From contig JAFCCJ010000003.1 in the NCBI GenBank assembly GCA_017610305.1, positions 1-44,471 on the forward strand: 44,471 nucleotides of DNA, written 5' to 3'. The position numbers and the translations under genes were made by a program. Shown here piece by piece: positions 3,171-36,758 of the stretch. The DNA is from Candidatus Iainarchaeum sp. (GTDB lineage: Archaea > Iainarchaeota > Iainarchaeia > Iainarchaeales > JAFCCJ01). Position 1 is the first letter of the stretch; each line of letters starts with the position of its first letter. The notes below the pieces were generated by a model. The model was not told the DNA's origin, did no database searches, and saw only the letters and a list, made by a program, of their open reading frames with translations.

Positions 3171-4406
3171 ATGAATAAAAAGATTTTAATTTTGTTTTCA
3201 ATTTTGCTGCTTTCGGTGGCGGTTTCAGGGGCGGACATTGACCGCTTGCTTAAGGTAAATAATGATTATTCCTATTCTCCCTCAAACCCCTATGTCGGGG
3301 ATGTTATAACGCTAAATGCCTCAATTGAGAATGTCGGCAACAGAAACGCCGCAACCGGTATAAAGGCCGAACTCTTCCTTAACGGCAATTACTTTGAGTC
3401 GATTGATATTGTGGAGGAAATAGAAAGCATCCCCCCAGGCCAGACAGCCCCAATATTTTTCCAGTATAAAATTAAGGATAACGCCTATACCGGAATTTAC
3501 AAATACAACATAAACCTTAGCTTTTTCAATGGTCAGCAGGACATAGAATACACCTACGACCTAAATCTCTTTGTGACAGAATGTTATGTCCTCGATATTG
3601 AAAATATTTCGCTTGACAATTACGCCCCGCACATAGGGGAGAGGTTCAATGTTAGTGCAAAGGTGAAAAATACCTGCTTCAACAATGTTCGCGACGTTAT
3701 CGTTGAGCTTGAACCCGTGACAAATTCAACTTTCGACCCATTTATCCTGCGCTCAAGTTCAACAATCAGACTCCCATTAATAGGGCCAGGGGAATCCAAG
3801 CAGGTTTCATTCTCCCTTCAGCCAGGCGAGAACACAGATCCCGGGCTGTATGTTTTCAGCATAGGCGCAAATTGCGTTGACTGCACACAGGTTTATTCAA
3901 ACAATTTCTCCTTTGAGGCAAAAGGCGAGCCAGCCCTCATCTTCTCAGGGATAGAGATTTCGGTGAACAGCCCGCTTGGGGACAAAAGAATAATGCAGGG
4001 AATGCCCTTTTCACTTTCAGTCCAACTGGACAATATTGGCACAGAAACCGCGAAAAAAATTGCAGTGAACATAGATGTTGATGGCGGCATAACAGGCGTA
4101 ACAGAATCATATATTGGAAACCTTGATGAAGACGATTCAGGGGCGGCAATATTTGACCTTGACACCTCCCTGTTTGCAGAATCAGGGGAGCATGTGGCAA
4201 CCATAACTGTTTCATACCTTGATGAAATGGGCGAACCACAGGAATTCTCCCAACCATATACAATTTATGTGGCTGAGCAGCCGCCAACCTCCCCGCTAAT
4301 ATGGATTTTAATCCTTATTTTGTTAATTGTTGTGTTGGTGATAGCCTACTTCATAATCAAGATGGTTCTGAGGCAGCTGGCAATAATTAAGTCACAGTCG
4401 CGATGA
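3171..4406 (+). CDS. Secreted CARDB/S-layer-like (COG1361-type) protein, ABC-transporter associated
   Basis: Signal peptide, repeated NxG...V.V.L / I.PGE Ig-like modules, C-terminal TM; overlaps the permease start. Confidence 0.8.
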   Translation: MNKKILILFSILLLSVAVSGADIDRLLKVNNDYSYSPSNPYVGDVITLNASIENVGNRNAATGIKAELFLNGNYFESIDIVEEIESIPPGQTAPIFFQYKIKDNAYTGIYKYNINLSFFNGQQDIEYTYDLNLFVTECYVLDIENISLDNYAPHIGERFNVSAKVKNTCFNNVRDVIVELEPVTNSTFDPFILRSSSTIRLPLIGPGESKQVSFSLQPGENTDPGLYVFSIGANCVDCTQVYSNNFSFEAKGEPALIFSGIEISVNSPLGDKRIMQGMPFSLSVQLDNIGTETAKKIAVNIDVDGGITGVTESYIGNLDEDDSGAAIFDLDTSLFAESGEHVATITVSYLDEMGEPQEFSQPYTIYVAEQPPTSPLIWILILILLIVVLVIAYFIIKMVLRQLAIIKSQSR

Positions 4407-5539
4407 TTAAATTATCATTCCTTAACCTGTTCAGGAGAAAGAGCAGGACCTTTCTTACCCTGCTTGCAATAGCGGTAGGTGTGGCATCAATAATTGTCCT
4501 GGTTTCCCTTGTGGACGGGGTTGTTGCTGACTTTACCGAAGTTTTTGAGCAGTTTCAGGGGCTCATAGTTCTGGAAAAAGGCGCTGCTGATGTTCCCTTC
4601 TCCAAACTTGACCGTTCCTTTGAGCATAAGCTGGAAAAAATAAATGGCGTGAAAGTTGCAATACCTGAAATATGGGTCCTGCCTAATAAAATTGATGGCC
4701 AAATACCAGAATTTTCCCTTGCAACAGTCATGGTTTATGGCCTGGACCTGGATAAATATCATGTTTCCTCAGGGTCTGGCTGGATTGCAGAGGTCGAGAA
4801 AGGCAGTTTTATAAGAAACAGCGACACCGATAGCGTTGTAATTGGAAAAAAAATTGCAGAGGATTATGATAAGTTTGTAGGTTCTGTACTTGACATAGAC
4901 GGTAAAAAATATAGGGTAAAGGGTATTTTTGCCGGGCAATCAGAATTCATTGAAGGGGTAATTGTAATGCCGCTTGAAGCCGCCCGCGAATTGGCTGATT
5001 TGGATGCGGATAAGGTAAACAGCTTTACAGTAGGCCTTACTGACCCGAGCAAAGATAAGCAGATTGCGGAACAAATAGAATTCATTTATAGTGATGATTT
5101 GCAGGCGCTTTCAATGTCACAATACTCTGAGCAGTTTGGCGAGATCTTTGGGAGTTTAAGGCTGCTGGTATGGGCAATAGCCGCAATAGCGGCAGTTGTT
5201 GCAGGAGTCGGCATAATAAACACGATTCTCATGAGCATTTTAGACCGCACTGCGGAAATCGGCACATTAAAGGCAACTGGATGGACCAATGAAAATGTTT
5301 TCATGATGATAATGTATGAGGCACTTTCAATAGGCATTTTAGGGGGAATAATTGGCCTGATTTTAGGATTTATGGTTGACCTGTTTTTGGCATCTATTTT
5401 AAACATAAATTTCCTGATTACAGTCCCCCTTCTGTTGCAGGCCTTTTTGTTTGCATTGTTTATAGGCCTTATTGCGGGAATTTATCCCGCTTATAGGGCA
5501 GTAAAACTTGATCCAATAGAAGCTATAAGGAGTGGTTGA
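4403..5539 (+). CDS. MacB/FtsX-family ABC permease
   Basis: RRKSRTFLT, GIINTILMSILDRTAEIGTLKATGW, PAYRAVKLDPIEAIR. Confidence 0.93.
   Translation: MIKLSFLNLFRRKSRTFLTLLAIAVGVASIIVLVSLVDGVVADFTEVFEQFQGLIVLEKGAADVPFSKLDRSFEHKLEKINGVKVAIPEIWVLPNKIDGQIPEFSLATVMVYGLDLDKYHVSSGSGWIAEVEKGSFIRNSDTDSVVIGKKIAEDYDKFVGSVLDIDGKKYRVKGIFAGQSEFIEGVIVMPLEAARELADLDADKVNSFTVGLTDPSKDKQIAEQIEFIYSDDLQALSMSQYSEQFGEIFGSLRLLVWAIAAIAAVVAGVGIINTILMSILDRTAEIGTLKATGWTNENVFMMIMYEALSIGILGGIIGLILGFMVDLFLASILNINFLITVPLLLQAFLFALFIGLIAGIYPAYRAVKLDPIEAIRSG
5172..5223 (+). repeat. 52-bp exact direct repeat, copy 1 (copy 2 at 7017-7068)
   Basis: GGGCAATAGCCGCAATAGCGGCAGTTGTTGCAGGAGTCGGCATAATAAACAC is identical in both permease genes. 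Confidence 0.9.
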
Positions 5540-5540
5540 A

Positions 5541-6233
5541 ATGATTGTTGCTGAAAATGTCACCAAAGAATACAAAATGGGCGAGGTAATTGTCCGTGCC
5601 TTGGCAGGGGTTTCAATTAAAATTGAAGAGGGGGATTTTGTAGTTATAGTTGGCCCAAGCGGTTCTGGAAAGAGCACATTAATGCACATACTTGGCGCAT
5701 TAGATAAACCAACTGCGGGAAAGGTATTAATTGACGGGGAAGACATTTCTGAAATGGATGATTGGGAGCTTGCAATGCTGAGAAGGAAGAAGATTGGCTT
5801 TATTTTCCAGAATTTCAATCTAATTCCCACACTTAATGCACTTGAAAATGTGGTAATTCCAACAGAACCCCTACCCGGAGATAAAACAAAATATGACCAG
5901 AGAGGAATTGAGCTCCTGAAAATGCTTGGCCTGGGCGATCGCCTATTGCACAAACCAAGTGAACTCAGTGGCGGTCAAAGGCAAAGGGTTTCTATTGCAA
6001 GATCCCTGATAAATAATCCTGAAGTGATTTTTGCCGATGAGCCCACAGGAAACCTCGATACCGTAACCGGCAACCACATAGTTGAAATAATGAGAAAACT
6101 CAATAAGGAAGAAAAAAAGACATTTGTAATAGTAACCCATGACCAAAGCCTTTTGGATTATGCAAACAAGCAGGTTTTCATCAGGGATGGAAAGATCGAG
6201 AAACAAACAAAAAAGAAAATAATTAAGAACTAG
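5541..6233 (+). CDS. LolD/MacB-type ABC ATP-binding protein
   Basis: GPSGSGKS, LSGGQRQRV, ADEPTGNLD, VTHD; ATG 5541 preferred over GTG 5532. Confidence 0.95.
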   Translation: MIVAENVTKEYKMGEVIVRALAGVSIKIEEGDFVVIVGPSGSGKSTLMHILGALDKPTAGKVLIDGEDISEMDDWELAMLRRKKIGFIFQNFNLIPTLNALENVVIPTEPLPGDKTKYDQRGIELLKMLGLGDRLLHKPSELSGGQRQRVSIARSLINNPEVIFADEPTGNLDTVTGNHIVEIMRKLNKEEKKTFVIVTHDQSLLDYANKQVFIRDGKIEKQTKKKIIKN

Positions 6234-6238
6234 ATTAG

Positions 6239-7399
6239 GTGAAGAATATGCTGGGAATAGCTTTTTCAAATATAACAAAAAGCAAGACACGCACACTTCT
6301 CTCACTCATTGGAATCATTATCGGAGTGGCGGCAATCATTATAATGGTTGCAACAGTGCAAGGCCAGCTTGAAGAGGTTCAGGAGGCAATCTCCAATGTG
6401 CAGGGCATTAGAATTGCGCCGGCAAATCTCCTTCAAGCTTTTGTGCCAAGCATGGATATTGAATGGGTCGATAAGCTTGAATCAATAAGGGGCGTTAAGG
6501 TGGCGGTTCCTATTATTTCTGGAATGTTGACCTCAGTAGACGGCAAAGACCTAATGTTAATGCCGCTCAAGTTTATTGCTCCAGACCCTTACAGGCTTTC
6601 AAAGGCAGGTGATGTAGGAATCGGCGGAGAGGTTCCAAGAAATCAGGGAAGGATGCTGGAAGCAGGGGATACAGGCGTGGCAGTAATAGGTTCTGTCATA
6701 GCTGATGATTATGGTAAATCTGTTGGAAGCACGATAAAGCTCCAGGAAACAAAATTCCGGGTTATAGGCATATTTTCTTCAGGCTCTGCCCTTTTGGACA
6801 CCCTTATTCTGATAAGTTTGGAAGACGGCAGGGAACTTTTGAAGGGGGATAATGACAAGGTAAGTGCCTTTGTGGTTGCTGCAAATAATCCTGAGGAAGA
6901 GTCAAAAGTAGCAAGGCTAATAGAGTTCAGGTATGGGGAGGAGGTTACTGCAATTCAGACCAACAGCCTTGCAGACCAGTTTGGCGAATTTATTCTTATT
7001 TTTGAGGCATTGGTTGGGGCAATAGCCGCAATAGCGGCAGTTGTTGCAGGAGTCGGCATAATAAACACAATGCTGATGAGTGTTGTTGAAAGATTTAAGG
7101 AGATTGGTGCCCTGAAGGCAACAGGCTGGAGCAACGATAATATTTTGAAAATGGTTCTCTATGAATCAATTTTGATTTCCATTTTAGGGGGGCTAATCGG
7201 AGCCATAATTGGCGTTTCAATTTCAATTTTGATTGATGTTGGTTTTGGGCTTAGAGTTTCTTTCACCTTGGTTGGGGTGCCTTATTTATTGGTTGTAATT
7301 GCATTTCTTTTTGCGGTTTTCATTGGCCTTATTGCAGGCTTATATCCGGCATGGATTGCATCGAAAATGGACCCAATTGACGCATTGAGGGCAGAATAA
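6239..7399 (+). CDS. MacB/FtsX-family ABC permease (second paralogue)
   Basis: GIINTMLMSVVERFKEIGALKATGW, PAWIASKMDPIDALR; probable start ATG 6248. Confidence 0.93.
   Translation: MKNMLGIAFSNITKSKTRTLLSLIGIIIGVAAIIIMVATVQGQLEEVQEAISNVQGIRIAPANLLQAFVPSMDIEWVDKLESIRGVKVAVPIISGMLTSVDGKDLMLMPLKFIAPDPYRLSKAGDVGIGGEVPRNQGRMLEAGDTGVAVIGSVIADDYGKSVGSTIKLQETKFRVIGIFSSGSALLDTLILISLEDGRELLKGDNDKVSAFVVAANNPEEESKVARLIEFRYGEEVTAIQTNSLADQFGEFILIFEALVGAIAAIAAVVAGVGIINTMLMSVVERFKEIGALKATGWSNDNILKMVLYESILISILGGLIGAIIGVSISILIDVGFGLRVSFTLVGVPYLLVVIAFLFAVFIGLIAGLYPAWIASKMDPIDALRAE
7017..7068 (+). repeat. 52-bp exact direct repeat, copy 2
   Basis: Identical to 5172-5223. Confidence 0.9.
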
Positions 7400-9295
7400 T
7401 TACCTTGACACTTCCAGAACGCCCTTAACAGAATTTAGTTCAGAAATCACTTTATCCAAATGTTTAAGGCCGCTGATTTTCAGCCCAAACCTGCAATTAA
7501 TATATCCCGTTTTCACAGACTTTGCATTTGCAGAAGTTACATTTATTTTGTTCCTGGAAAATACGGACAAAAGATCGCTGAGCATTCCAATCCTGTCCTC
7601 CCCCCGCACTTTCAACTCAACAGCATAATCTCCCCTGGTCCCAAGGCCCCAATCCACCTTAACCCCCTTCCTTATATTCTCCTTACCAAGCTCCTCGCAG
7701 TCCGTTCTGTGCACAGAAATCTTTCTTTTGGTGGTTATAAATCCGGTTATTTCATCTCCGGGAACAGGGCTGCAGCATTTTGCAAGTTTTATCTTACGGT
7801 CATGCTTTTTAATTGTAATTGCCTTAACCGGCTTATCCTTAATCCTGGGTTTCTTCACACTCAAGTGCAGCCTTTGCCTTATCTTATTTTTTGCCTTTGA
7901 GGTATTTACAAATCCTAACCAGCTTGTCTTTGGCTGCTGTTTAGCGGAAGTTATTATTTCCACAAGGTCGCCATTGTCAAGCTCATGGTTTAATGCAACC
8001 GCCTTTCCATTAACCTTTGCCTGTTGGCAGCGGTCACCAACCTCAGAATGCACGGCATATGCAAAATCCAATGCAGTCGCGCCTGTCGGAAGCTCAACAA
8101 CCTCCCCTTTTGGGGTTAGCGTAAATATATCGCTCTCAAAAAAGTCCACCTTAAGGGAACCGACCTCCCCGCCCTTTGACTCCTTTCTCCATTCCAGAAG
8201 CTCCCTCAACCAGGTCAGTTTCCGGTCATATTTATCCTCTTTTGCCCTTCCCTTGTAGAGCCAGTGCCCGGCAGCCCCGAATTCAGATATCTGATGCATC
8301 TCTTTAGTTCTTATCTGAATCTCAATTGGCTTTCTCCCAGGGCCTATGACTGCAGTATGCAGCGACTGGTAAAGATTTGACTTAGGTTTTGCTATATAAT
8401 CATCAAATTCCCCCGGCAATGGTTTCCAGAGAGAATGAATTATGCCCAAAATCTCATAGCACCCCTCAACCGAGTCGGTTATCACCCTTATTGCACTAAG
8501 GTCATAGATTTCCTCGAATGAACTGTTCTTCCTTTGCATCTTGTTGTAAATGCCGTAGACGTGTTTTGCCCTACCCTCAATTATTACACTTATTTTCCTT
8601 TCCTTTAATTTTTTTTCTAAGATAGATTTTGCCTTAGCAATCTCCCTTAATCTTTCCCGTTCCCCCCCCTTTATTTTTTTCTGGAGGCTATTGAAAACAT
8701 CCGGGTTAGAATTCTTGAGCCACAAATCTTCAAGTTCTGACTTAATTTGCTGGACCCCAAGCTTATGGGCAAGTGGCGCATATATTTGGTCTGTTTCCTC
8801 AAGAAGTATTTTTTGTGATTCTTTAGGGATGACCTCGAAACACCTCATATTGTGCACCATATCTGCCAACTGAATAAGCACCAGCCTAAGGTCCTTGGTC
8901 ATCGCAAGAATTATTTTTTTTGTCTGTTCCGTTCCCTGTTCCATGTTTCCCGAGAGGTAACTAAACATAAACTTGTCAAGCTCGGTAACGATGTTTGCCA
9001 CCTCACCACCCACCGCTTCGGAGATTTCCTTTTTACTTGTGCCATGGCTAATGACATTATGAATCAGTGCGGCGGCAACAGTTATTGAATCAGCATTTAC
9101 CGAAATCAAAATTTTTGCAACTTCTAAATTGTGCCACATCAATGGCCTGCCCCCGAGGTCCAATGCCCCGCTAAGCTTTTTGATTCCAAAATCATAGGCC
9201 CGTTCCAACAGAACCATATCTAATTCAGGACTGGATTTAGCCAGCTCCCTGAGATCCCCCTTCTTATCCAATTCTCTAATCTCTGCAGACGCCAT
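7400..9295 (-). CDS. relA: Long RelA/SpoT homologue, RelA-like (p)ppGpp synthetase with degenerate hydrolase domain
   Basis: YAPLAHKLG, GRAKHVYGIYNKM, DLSAIRVI, EFDDYIAKPK, YQSLHT, EIQIRT; TGS (FTLTPKG..DFAYAVHSEVG); ZFD (KCCSPVPGD..VHRTDC); ACT (DRIGMLSDL). HD motif reads HNVISH. Confidence 0.93.
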   Translation of the reverse strand: MASAEIRELDKKGDLRELAKSSPELDMVLLERAYDFGIKKLSGALDLGGRPLMWHNLEVAKILISVNADSITVAAALIHNVISHGTSKKEISEAVGGEVANIVTELDKFMFSYLSGNMEQGTEQTKKIILAMTKDLRLVLIQLADMVHNMRCFEVIPKESQKILLEETDQIYAPLAHKLGVQQIKSELEDLWLKNSNPDVFNSLQKKIKGGERERLREIAKAKSILEKKLKERKISVIIEGRAKHVYGIYNKMQRKNSSFEEIYDLSAIRVITDSVEGCYEILGIIHSLWKPLPGEFDDYIAKPKSNLYQSLHTAVIGPGRKPIEIQIRTKEMHQISEFGAAGHWLYKGRAKEDKYDRKLTWLRELLEWRKESKGGEVGSLKVDFFESDIFTLTPKGEVVELPTGATALDFAYAVHSEVGDRCQQAKVNGKAVALNHELDNGDLVEIITSAKQQPKTSWLGFVNTSKAKNKIRQRLHLSVKKPRIKDKPVKAITIKKHDRKIKLAKCCSPVPGDEITGFITTKRKISVHRTDCEELGKENIRKGVKVDWGLGTRGDYAVELKVRGEDRIGMLSDLLSVFSRNKINVTSANAKSVKTGYINCRFGLKISGLKHLDKVISELNSVKGVLEVSR

Positions 9296-10824: not shown

Positions 10825-11463
10825 ATGTCTAAATTCAAAAGGCTAAAAACGGAAGAGGAGAAACCGCTCCAGATTTGGAATTATATCCCTATTGTATTAA
10901 TTATTTTGATTGCGGCATTTCTATTATGGTATTTTACCAATAGCCCGGGCATCGACCTCACACCATATCTTGAAAACGAACCAACATTAGGTTCAGCAGA
11001 CGCAAAAGTGACAATTGTTGAATTCTCCGATTTTGAATGTTCTTTTTGTGCAGCTGCTGCCTCAACTGTAAGGCAGGTTGTTAATGAATATGATGGAAAG
11101 GTAAAACTGGTTTACAAGAATTTTCCCATCCCATCCCATGACGATGCAATGGCCGCCGCCGAAGCCTCTGAATGCGCCTATGACCAGGGAAAATTCTGGG
11201 AATACCATGATAAACTCTTCGAGAACCAGGGAAATCTTGGGATTGCGAGTTTGAGGCGGTTTGCCAATGAAGTAGGCCTGAATGAGCGGCAATTTATTGA
11301 TTGTTTAGGTTCAGGGAGCAAGAATGTCGAGGTTAATGGCGACATTTCCCATGGCAAGATTGCGGGAATCACAGGAACCCCGGCTTTTTTCATAAATGGC
11401 AAAAAACTTCCGAACAATTCTATAGAAACATTTAGAGCCGTAATTAATCAGGAATTGGGCTAA
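10825..11463 (+). CDS. Membrane-anchored DsbA-family thiol-disulfide oxidoreductase
   Basis: N-terminal TM, EFSDFECSFC, GITGTP. Confidence 0.92.
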   Translation: MSKFKRLKTEEEKPLQIWNYIPIVLIILIAAFLLWYFTNSPGIDLTPYLENEPTLGSADAKVTIVEFSDFECSFCAAAASTVRQVVNEYDGKVKLVYKNFPIPSHDDAMAAAEASECAYDQGKFWEYHDKLFENQGNLGIASLRRFANEVGLNERQFIDCLGSGSKNVEVNGDISHGKIAGITGTPAFFINGKKLPNNSIETFRAVINQELG

Positions 11464-11605: not shown

Positions 11606-12379
11606 GTGAGTGATGAAAAAGGGACATTTAATGAAAATAACTTGCTTCCAATAAGCATTGTAATTGCTTCGCTTATTGTTGCAGGAACAGTTTTTATGGT
11701 TGGAGGAAATCTATCCGGCCAGATAACAGGTTTAACAGTCGCAATAGATTCTATTGAGGTTACTGGAGGAGGGGACTCAGGAGATTCAGGAGCAGTTGTT
11801 GTTCCGCCAAAAAATGATGGTGACAGTGGCAATGACACCCCGCCCGTACCGCCGCCAACAGCAGATGTAGGAGAGCTTGTAGATGATGACGATGCTGTAA
11901 GGGGCCCAGAGGACGCAAAGATAACAATAGTTGAATTTTCCGACTTTGAATGCCCTTTTTGTGGCAGGGCAATTCCTGTCGTGGAACAGGTTATGGAGGA
12001 ATATGAGGGAGACGTTAAGTTGATTTTCAAGGACTTCCCACTAAGTTTCCACCAGAATGCACAGAAGGCCGCAGAGGCTGCAGAGTGTGCCGGAGAGCAG
12101 GACCAGTACTATGAGTACCATGACGTGCTCTTCGACAACCAAACCGCGCTGTCAATTTCGGATTTGAAGCAGTATGCCGCCGATTTAGGGCTGGATACTG
12201 AGGCTTTCAACTCATGCCTTGATAACGGGGATATGGCTGCAGAAGTGCAGGCAGATTTCGCAGCAGGACAGGCGGTAGGAGTAAGCGGAACACCGACATT
12301 CTTTATCAATGGACAGAAGATTGTTGGGGCTCAGCCATTCTCTGCATTTAAGCAGATAATTGACGCAGAACTTTCATAA
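11606..12379 (+). CDS. Membrane-anchored DsbA-family oxidoreductase (second paralogue)
   Basis: TM, G/D/P-rich linker, EFSDFECPFC, GVSGTP, GAQP. Confidence 0.93.
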   Translation: MSDEKGTFNENNLLPISIVIASLIVAGTVFMVGGNLSGQITGLTVAIDSIEVTGGGDSGDSGAVVVPPKNDGDSGNDTPPVPPPTADVGELVDDDDAVRGPEDAKITIVEFSDFECPFCGRAIPVVEQVMEEYEGDVKLIFKDFPLSFHQNAQKAAEAAECAGEQDQYYEYHDVLFDNQTALSISDLKQYAADLGLDTEAFNSCLDNGDMAAEVQADFAAGQAVGVSGTPTFFINGQKIVGAQPFSAFKQIIDAELS

Positions 12380-36645: not shown

Positions 36646-36758
36646 TGCAGCCGCCGGGATTCGAACCCGGGTCAAGAGCTAACCTCTTCCTTTTTGCAAA
36701 CTTTTTGCCGGCAAAAAGGTTTTGGAAGGCTCTGATCCTACCACTAGACCACGGCTGC
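36646..36758 (-). tRNA. tRNA-Gly(TCC) with a 42-nt intron at 37/38 (intron 36681-36722)
   Basis: GCAGCCG/CGGCTGC acceptor stem, TAGTGGTA D arm, AGAGC-CTTCCA[intron]A-GCTCT, GGTTCGAATCC T arm; BHB-like pairing; CCA not encoded. Confidence 0.93.

Follow-up and report, generated by a model that had tools for sequence, protein, structure and literature searches.

A predicted alarmone synthetase and its hydrolase-type paralogue of the RelA/SpoT family in the archaeal phylum Iainarchaeota

Signaling by guanosine tetraphosphate and pentaphosphate, (p)ppGpp, is regarded as bacterial and plastidial. The finding of a gene for a long RelA/SpoT homologue (RSH) in an archaeal genome raises the question of what such an enzyme could do in its host and which partner, if any, could remove its product. 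The gene in question, referred to here as RSH-A, is located on contig JAFCCJ010000003.1 of Candidatus Iainarchaeum sp. (assembly GCA_017610305.1), and the whole stretch of 44,471 nucleotides that was analyzed is referred to as the window. The phylum, Iainarchaeota, for which we take Diapherotrites to be an older name, is a member of the DPANN archaea. In the initial annotation of this DNA, RSH-A was described as a hydrolase-dead synthetase with an unknown hydrolase. Comparison of the gene with solved structures, with the rest of its genome and with the other genomes of the phylum suggests that RSH-A is probably the synthesizing member of an alarmone cycle run by two enzymes. A second gene of the same genome, RSH-B, would encode the degrading member, and both would have arisen from one duplicated bacterial Rel-like gene.

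The presence of a long RSH in an archaeon, as proposed from the letters of the DNA, was borne out by profile searches. RSH-A passed the cut-off of NCBIfam TIGR00691 (spoT_relA; 585.6 bits, cut-off 499.2), and the Pfam families HD_4, RelA_SpoT, TGS and ACT_4 each exceeded their cut-offs (Table 1). The closest solved chains were 8fr8_I (E 4.6e-133), Bacillus subtilis Rel (6yxa_A, 4.7e-120) and ribosome-bound Escherichia coli RelA (5iqr, 9.2e-118). The previously described SYNTH-TGS-ZFD-ACT architecture was found with all four parts, and can be refined by the addition of an N-terminal pseudo-HD domain and the near absence of the AH domain; the full order is pseudo-HD, SYNTH, TGS, short linker, ZFD and ACT. 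In the AlphaFold model of RSH-A (mean predicted local distance difference test score 78.2), the zinc-finger region shows strands across residues 493-530 and the ACT domain has the order beta-alpha-beta-beta-alpha-beta. The family RelA_AH_RIS (PF19296) was matched below cut-off at residues 450-536 (profile positions 84-175 of 185), and the part matched is the RIS/zinc-finger only.

Alignments to solved Rel and RelA chains placed HNVISH of RSH-A opposite HDTVED or HDVVED, and LADMVHNMR opposite LADRLHNMR, which agrees with the motif changes read earlier. RSH-A thus lacks the complete HD hydrolase site, which consists of H, HD, ED and the Asp and Asn of LADxxxN. The synthetase motif set, i.e., GRxK, the D of DLxAxR, YxxxH and ExQxRT, is complete, with R242, K244, K252, D265, R270, Y309, H313, E325 and Q327 all present; the roles of the hydrolase and synthetase residues are those from RelSeq work, which we assume to hold for RSH-A. 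At the RxKD position, PGEFDDY of RSH-A was found opposite PGRFKDY in the Rel chains 8fr8_I and 6yxa_A and opposite PDEFDDY in E. coli RelA, so that the ExDD-type motif, as initially annotated, is identical to that of E. coli RelA. The TGS histidine in YAVHSEVG was found opposite YAVHTEVG or YHIHSDVG in the solved chains; by analogy with RelA-ribosome structures, this histidine presumably touches the CCA end of the tRNA, and a contact role is presumed for the zinc-finger ligands as well. The loss of the hydrolase motifs, together with the replacement of RxKD by ExDD, gives RSH-A the functional signature of RelA-like proteins. Judged from sequence, HNVISH and EFDD are marks of RelA-like working and not of orthology to RelA. 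A check against subfamily models had been suggested in the initial annotation; its outcome was mixed, as the general model named above was passed and the cut-offs of the equivalogs for RelA (NF008124; 419 bits, cut-off 728) and SpoT (NF008303; 444.7 bits, cut-off 947) were not reached.

The description of the hydrolase as unknown does not hold for this genome, as RSH-B has all hydrolase residues intact and appears to be synthetase-dead. A search of the genome with the catalytic families returned two HD_4 and two RelA_SpoT matches only, which are RSH-A and RSH-B. RSH-B is 34% identical to RSH-A and contains an HD_4 domain (130.3 bits) and a TGS domain; its RelA_SpoT match is truncated and low-scoring (52.0 bits). 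Its hydrolase motifs, HDVLED and KLADKLDN, are intact, while its synthetase motifs are degenerate in the alignment to B. subtilis Rel. RSH-B also matches small alarmone hydrolases and Mesh1, and its match to 7qpr_A has an E-value of 9.8e-37. The gene argS, encoding arginyl-tRNA synthetase, is found 20 bp upstream on the same strand; this linkage would place RSH-B in a tRNA-charging context. In a B orthologue from a sister genome (L044, G131:C26), one TGA falls among the first few codons matched to the query, which makes it probable that RSH-B starts not at the listed TTG but at a Met six codons further on. Another hydrolase-type gene observed in the genome encodes a 139-aa Nudix protein.

The complementary state of the two genes is conserved across the phylum. 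Among 151 phylum genomes, including the one that carries the window, matches at E <= 1e-10 were found to RSH-A in 109 (approximately 72%, closed or nearly closed genomes among them) and to RSH-B in 106, in keeping with vertical inheritance. By hand count, 64 of the 151 had at least two matches to the A query and 62 to the B query, some of which are perhaps split genes. No RSH match was found in the 17 genomes of genus g14 (family f10), several of which are 92-96% complete, nor in a few small families, and the RSH system was probably lost in this genus. An alignment was made of 40 A-type and 30 B-type sequences, 16 bacterial sequences and E. coli RelA and SpoT; the A-type set comprised that of the window, 19 top matches and 20 of greater distance. 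The full hydrolase set (seven residues: H, H, D, E and D, plus the Asp and Asn of LADxxxN) was found in none of the 40 A-type, all 30 B-type and 15 of the 16 bacterial sequences, and the full nine-residue synthetase set in 40/40 A-type, 0/30 B-type and 16/16 bacterial sequences. The earlier proposal that the hydrolase set is lost and the synthetase set intact therefore applies to the A-type as a whole. The catalytic Glu of the synthetase is Lys in every B-type sequence, and the invariant alignment columns agree with complementary active sites in A and B. At the RxKD position, 32 of the 40 A-type sequences have x.DD (E296 in 21, D298 in 32 and D299 in all 40), the B-type has K.KD in 30/30, and the bacterial sequences mostly have R.KD (R in 12/16, K in 13/16). 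Genomic context is conserved as well; an argS homologue was found at 25 of 29 other B-type loci.

Based on these observations, RSH-A is predicted to be a RelA-like monofunctional synthetase that would make (p)ppGpp from ATP and either GDP or GTP; its N-terminal HD domain would be retained as a pseudo-hydrolase that may provide a scaffold or take part in regulation. The TGS, zinc-finger and ACT domains of RSH-A correspond to the parts that read deacylated tRNA on the stalled ribosome in bacterial RelA and Rel. Because the TGS histidine and the zinc finger are conserved, RSH-A may still sense uncharged tRNA on a stalled archaeal ribosome, and the alarmone would then act on downstream targets of the host until removed by RSH-B, which has a complete HD site and a dead synthetase. 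With regard to origin, a single bacterial Rel-like gene would have been acquired and duplicated, and its functions divided inside the archaeal lineage, in parallel to RelA and SpoT of proteobacteria; the change from RxKD to ExDD in the synthetase-only copy would likewise parallel that of RelA.

Several observations weigh against this division of labor, and they concern the HD domain of RSH-A, its docking on the ribosome, the form and distribution of RSH-B, and some of the tree comparisons. With regard to the HD domain, RSH-A retains H55, H79, D145 and N149, the first three of which we take to be three of the four Mn2+ ligands, and because of these residues some residual or altered HD chemistry may persist. 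The domain could then still be an active (p)ppGpp hydrolase or have a changed specificity, which would make RSH-A bifunctional like Rel. The HD fold was modeled at high confidence, and the catalytic N-terminal half of the model superposes on Staphylococcus aureus Rel with a root-mean-square deviation of 2.3 and a template modeling score of 0.89. However, the positions of D78, E81 and D82, presumably the RelSeq numbers of hydrolase residues, are N, S and H in RSH-A, and an Asp is found at the position aligned to the Arg of the motif R..SG.PY..H. Moreover, no HD-domain column other than A33 is invariant across the A-type, the full hydrolase set is absent throughout it as described above, and a dedicated hydrolase paralogue is present in the genome. 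An active hydrolase in RSH-A is therefore very improbable.

With regard to docking, the AH domain, located between the TGS domain and the zinc finger, is nearly gone from RSH-A. Only two short helices (residues 457-462 and 466-475) are left in the model, the region after TGS has approximately 155 residues compared to approximately 250 in bacterial long RSHs, and in the AH region both the A-type and the B-type have gaps at 69 alignment columns filled in bacteria. As the AH domain is almost missing and archaeal ribosomes are unlike bacterial ones, docking in the manner of RelA is not assured. RSH-A could thus make (p)ppGpp without deacylated tRNA on an archaeal ribosome as the trigger, its C-terminal domains being an autoinhibitory, ligand-binding or host-signal module. 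In many proteins the ACT domain binds a small ligand, which counts in favor of such a module, and no archaeal ribosome-RSH complex was found in literature searches. On the other hand, His416 of the TGS domain and the four zinc-finger ligands (C507, C508, H529 and C533) are invariant in 40/40 A-type sequences, consistent with the initial annotation of a retained TGS histidine, whereas this histidine is kept in only 2/30 B-type sequences; this pattern is consistent with selection acting on contacts with tRNA and the ribosome specifically in the A-type. In addition, the top match of the full-length RSH-A model among PDB structures (Foldseek) was RelA on the 70S ribosome (E 1.1e-40). Synthesis without deacylated tRNA on the archaeal ribosome as the switch seems the less likely mode, though one with a real share of the probability; it concerns regulation and is compatible with RSH-A and RSH-B being the two halves of one alarmone cycle.

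With regard to RSH-B, the protein stops right after the TGS domain in the host genus and has no ACT domain, and in other families the B-type has an ACT domain directly after TGS. The B-type is also not found with every A-type gene. An HD_4 search of nine related genomes with A-type genes only (G001, which is closed, G002, G010, G016, G031, G100, G074, G040 and G029; loci L026, L075, L082-L087 and others) did not find a second HD_4 domain, and the sole match in each was the vestigial domain of the A-type gene, at 18-103 bits. The synthetase therefore appears able to exist without B and without any recognizable RSH hydrolase in these related lineages, to which the point on the hydrolase in the initial annotation still applies. 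A further gene in a closed 0.8-Mb genome of family f6 (L099, G006:C1, approximately 524677-525012) encodes 463 aa with an intact-looking synthetase domain and TGS; no HD_4 and no C-terminal zinc-finger or ACT domain were detected in it, and it possibly derives from the A-type by further reduction.

Outside the phylum, the relatives of A and B are solely bacterial Rel proteins of many phyla, at 32-47% identity. The origin of the pair was analyzed with a quick posterior mean site frequency tree of the shared N-terminal region (112 sequences, 451 columns), with archaeal sampling confined to the Iainarchaeota among the DPANN phyla. The archaeal sequences were 23 A-type and 17 B-type; the remaining 17 A-type and 13 B-type sequences, together with the divergent L099, were left out to keep the tree small. 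The 72 bacterial sequences were 63 of 145 recovered open reading frames (ORFs; at most two per class, four for Pseudomonadota), seven from a scan for public orthologues, and E. coli RelA and SpoT. In the resulting tree the A-type, the B-type and the bacteria each formed one side of a branch, with support in the Shimodaira-Hasegawa-like approximate likelihood ratio test, as obtained from quick trees, of 97, 100 and 98, respectively, and E. coli RelA and SpoT fell among the bacteria. The same three splits were recovered with a subset of 56 sequences. For a set of 66, ten RelA genes from a class-wide sample were added to these 56, giving 12 RelA in total; two gammaproteobacterial loci (L270 and L282) were dropped because they had no ORF of at least 600 aa with the motif F[DN]DY, and L292, from a genome flagged as unpublished, was left out. 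The best tree of the 66 sequences under LG+F+G4 has A as sister to B, and when the topologies were re-scored under LG+C20+F+G4, the two best trees were those that join A and B. These searches were not exhaustive, as the tree constrained to A+B was slightly worse than the free search under LG+F+G4.

These trees bear on a different history, in which A and B would have come by separate transfers and A would be a proteobacterial RelA that was already hydrolase-dead and of the ExDD type, so that the loss would not be independent. A and B are each closer to bacterial Rel than to one another (for RSH-A, identity is 44% with a Bacillota Rel, compared to the 34% with RSH-B given above), and ExDD and a dead HD domain are common to A and RelA. 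When A was constrained to group with RelA, the cost with two RelA sequences (56 sequences) was 4.2 log-likelihood units, with a p-value in the approximately unbiased (AU) test of 0.535. With 12 RelA sequences the cost was 41-50 units across tests; under LG+F+G4 it was 49.6 units with a p-AU of 0.030, and under LG+C20+F+G4 the p-AU was 0.055, above the 5% rejection level. Grouping of B with SpoT gave a p-AU of 0.131 with 56 sequences; with 66 sequences the cost was 43-46 units across models, the p-AU being 0.066 under LG+F+G4 (45.7 units) and 0.051 under LG+C20+F+G4. The grouping of A with B joins two long branches, and the AU tests do not firmly reject the alternatives. However, A was not joined to RelA in any best tree, the RelA equivalog score of RSH-A is far from its cut-off, and a joint transfer from RelA and SpoT (A with RelA and B with SpoT, 56 sequences) was rejected at a p-AU of 0.0097. 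Moreover, an HD dipeptide remnant is found in four A-type sequences and the Arg is retained (GRFDD) in one, and the AH deletion is common to A and B, which speaks against separate transfers; all three features fit decay inside an archaeal clade. Separate transfers thus appear rather improbable, and there is moderate evidence that one acquisition was followed by duplication inside the archaeal lineage. The earlier proposal that the loss of the hydrolase was independent of proteobacterial RelA agrees with the best trees and, given the spread of the AU results with two and with 12 RelA sequences, has been shown only in part.

A different concern is that the RSH-A gene could lie on a bacterial fragment that was misbinned or misassembled into an archaeal genome, given that its nearest relatives outside the phylum are all bacterial (31-47% identity). 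However, archaeal genes are found on both flanks within the contig, including a gene for archaeal RadA (467.9 bits on TIGR02236), and other contig genes encode replication factor A (RPA), SRP54 and a short archaeal-type triose-phosphate isomerase (PRK04302, 272.9 bits). The Rfam match to a tRNA (Table 1) is long enough to imply an intron, which is consistent with an archaeal tRNA. The GC content is even along the window (0.39-0.46), and the host genome (1.24 Mb, 89 contigs) is 89.1% complete and 0.52% contaminated. The nearest public orthologue of RSH-A, 86% identical over 631 residues, is found in an independent metagenome-assembled genome titled Candidatus Iainarchaeum archaeon and has the same neighbor gene; all remaining matches in the same scan were bacterial (31-44% identity). 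Because of the archaeal neighbors and the phylum-wide conservation in 109 of 151 genomes, the contig is not considered chimeric. Chimerism, which would have undone the initial annotation, is ruled out by these neighbors, the even GC, the 86% orthologue and the phylum-wide presence, and the probability left to a bacterial fragment is negligible.

Among characterized proteins, E. coli RelA (5iqr, 5kpv), a monofunctional ribosome-dependent synthetase I, is like RSH-A in the order pseudo-HD, SYNTH, TGS, ZFD and ACT, in the loss of the hydrolase motif, in the identical EFDD and in keeping the TGS histidine and the zinc-finger ligands. RSH-A differs from it by having approximately 90-100 fewer residues after TGS with AH nearly gone, by missing the NF008124 cut-off, by not grouping with RelA in the best trees, and by its archaeal host and ribosome. 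The highest sequence similarity to RSH-A is found in bifunctional Rel of Bacillota and Actinomycetota (6yxa, 8fr8_I; bacterial Rel genes at 40-47% identity), which has the same synthetase residues and N-terminal fold; Rel has HDxxED, LADRLHN and RxKD and hydrolyzes (p)ppGpp, whereas RSH-A has HNVISH, LADMVHN and EFDD. Like synthetase-dead SpoT (7qpr, which we take to be from Acinetobacter baumannii), RSH-B is a long RSH whose HD site is intact and whose synthetase motifs have degenerated, and its partner in the genome is a hydrolase-dead synthetase paralogue. Unlike SpoT, RSH-B has no AH or zinc-finger domains and, in this genus, no ACT domain, and grouping the two is costly as described above (p-AU 0.05-0.07).

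The pair does not represent a novel type of system, as the RSH family, its chemistry and the presence of RelA/SpoT in DPANN archaea are already known. According to Atkinson et al. (2011, PMC3153485), archaea lack long RSHs, while the available text of a 2021 comparative study of DPANN genomes (PMC8407392) gives RelA/SpoT in 69.0% of Diapherotrites, with acquisition from bacteria predicted, compared to approximately 72% (109/151) here. Unlike the present analysis, that text does not divide the genes into hydrolase-dead and synthetase-dead paralogues. Thirteen long-RSH subfamilies are defined by Jimmy et al. (10.1101/575399); a published pair of hydrolase-dead and synthetase-dead RSHs in archaea was not found in the sources at hand, and the supplementary tables of Jimmy et al. 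may list these proteins.

RSH-A and RSH-B offer a concrete pair of genes with which to ask whether a stringent response operates in an archaeon. Should archaeal ribosomes activate RSH-A, a bacterial sensor of stalled ribosomes would have been adapted, with its linker greatly shortened, to a ribosome of another kind. The pair would also represent a second and probably independent case in which the two activities of Rel were divided between a synthetase-only enzyme and a hydrolase-only one, again with a change from RxKD to ExDD. Such a case would support the link between the RxKD/ExDD motif and monofunctionality that was proposed previously (PMC2666561, as far as the text at hand goes). The most far-reaching interpretation is that this archaeal phylum re-invented the RelA/SpoT split independently, with a ribosome-sensing ExDD synthetase and an argS-linked hydrolase that together run a working stringent response on the archaeal ribosome, and with some sister lineages that have no recognizable RSH hydrolase; the chances of this interpretation being correct seem evenly balanced.

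Table 1. Positions of RSH-A, its domains and motifs, and other features (window coordinates unless a contig is given)
Feature	Position	Strand	Details
RSH-A gene	7400..9295	-	631 aa, ATG start, stop codon included; long RSH
Pseudo-hydrolase domain HD_4 (predicted)	8753..9196	-	Residues 34-181; Pfam 108.5 bits
HNVISH in place of HDxxED	9044..9061	-	Residues 79-84; D to N, E to S, D to H
(p)ppGpp synthetase domain RelA_SpoT (predicted)	8246..8575	-	Residues 241-350; Pfam 143.5 bits
EFDD in place of RxKD	8399..8410	-	Residues 296-299
TGS domain with His416	7949..8122	-	Residues 392-449; Pfam 77.4 bits
Zinc-finger (RIS/ZFD) region	7688..7819	-	Approximately residues 493-536; C507 C508 H529 C533
ACT (RRM) domain	7403..7633	-	Residues 555-631; Pfam ACT_4 68.9 bits
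ABC transporter	4403..7399	+	Two MacB_PCD/FtsX permeases flanking one ABC ATPase; Pfam
Adjacent ORF	10825-11463	+	
Adjacent ORF	11606-12379	+	
tRNA match	36646-36758	-	Rfam, 113 nt, 53.8 bits; no ARAGORN call
RSH-B	Contig C26, G000:C26:9954-11405 (locus L003:607-2061)	-	484 aa as listed; outside the window

Among other genes found in the window is the ABC transporter next to RSH-A. Its stop codon abuts that of RSH-A, tail to tail, and a MacB/FtsX permease homologue was found at 14 of the 19 A-type loci examined; no functional link to RSH-A is evident. Two adjacent ORFs (10825-11463 and 11606-12379) each have a hydrophobic stretch at the N-terminus and, in comparable surroundings, CxxC motifs (CSFC, CPFC); from translations read by eye, they look like candidate paralogous secreted thiol oxidoreductases of the DsbA type.

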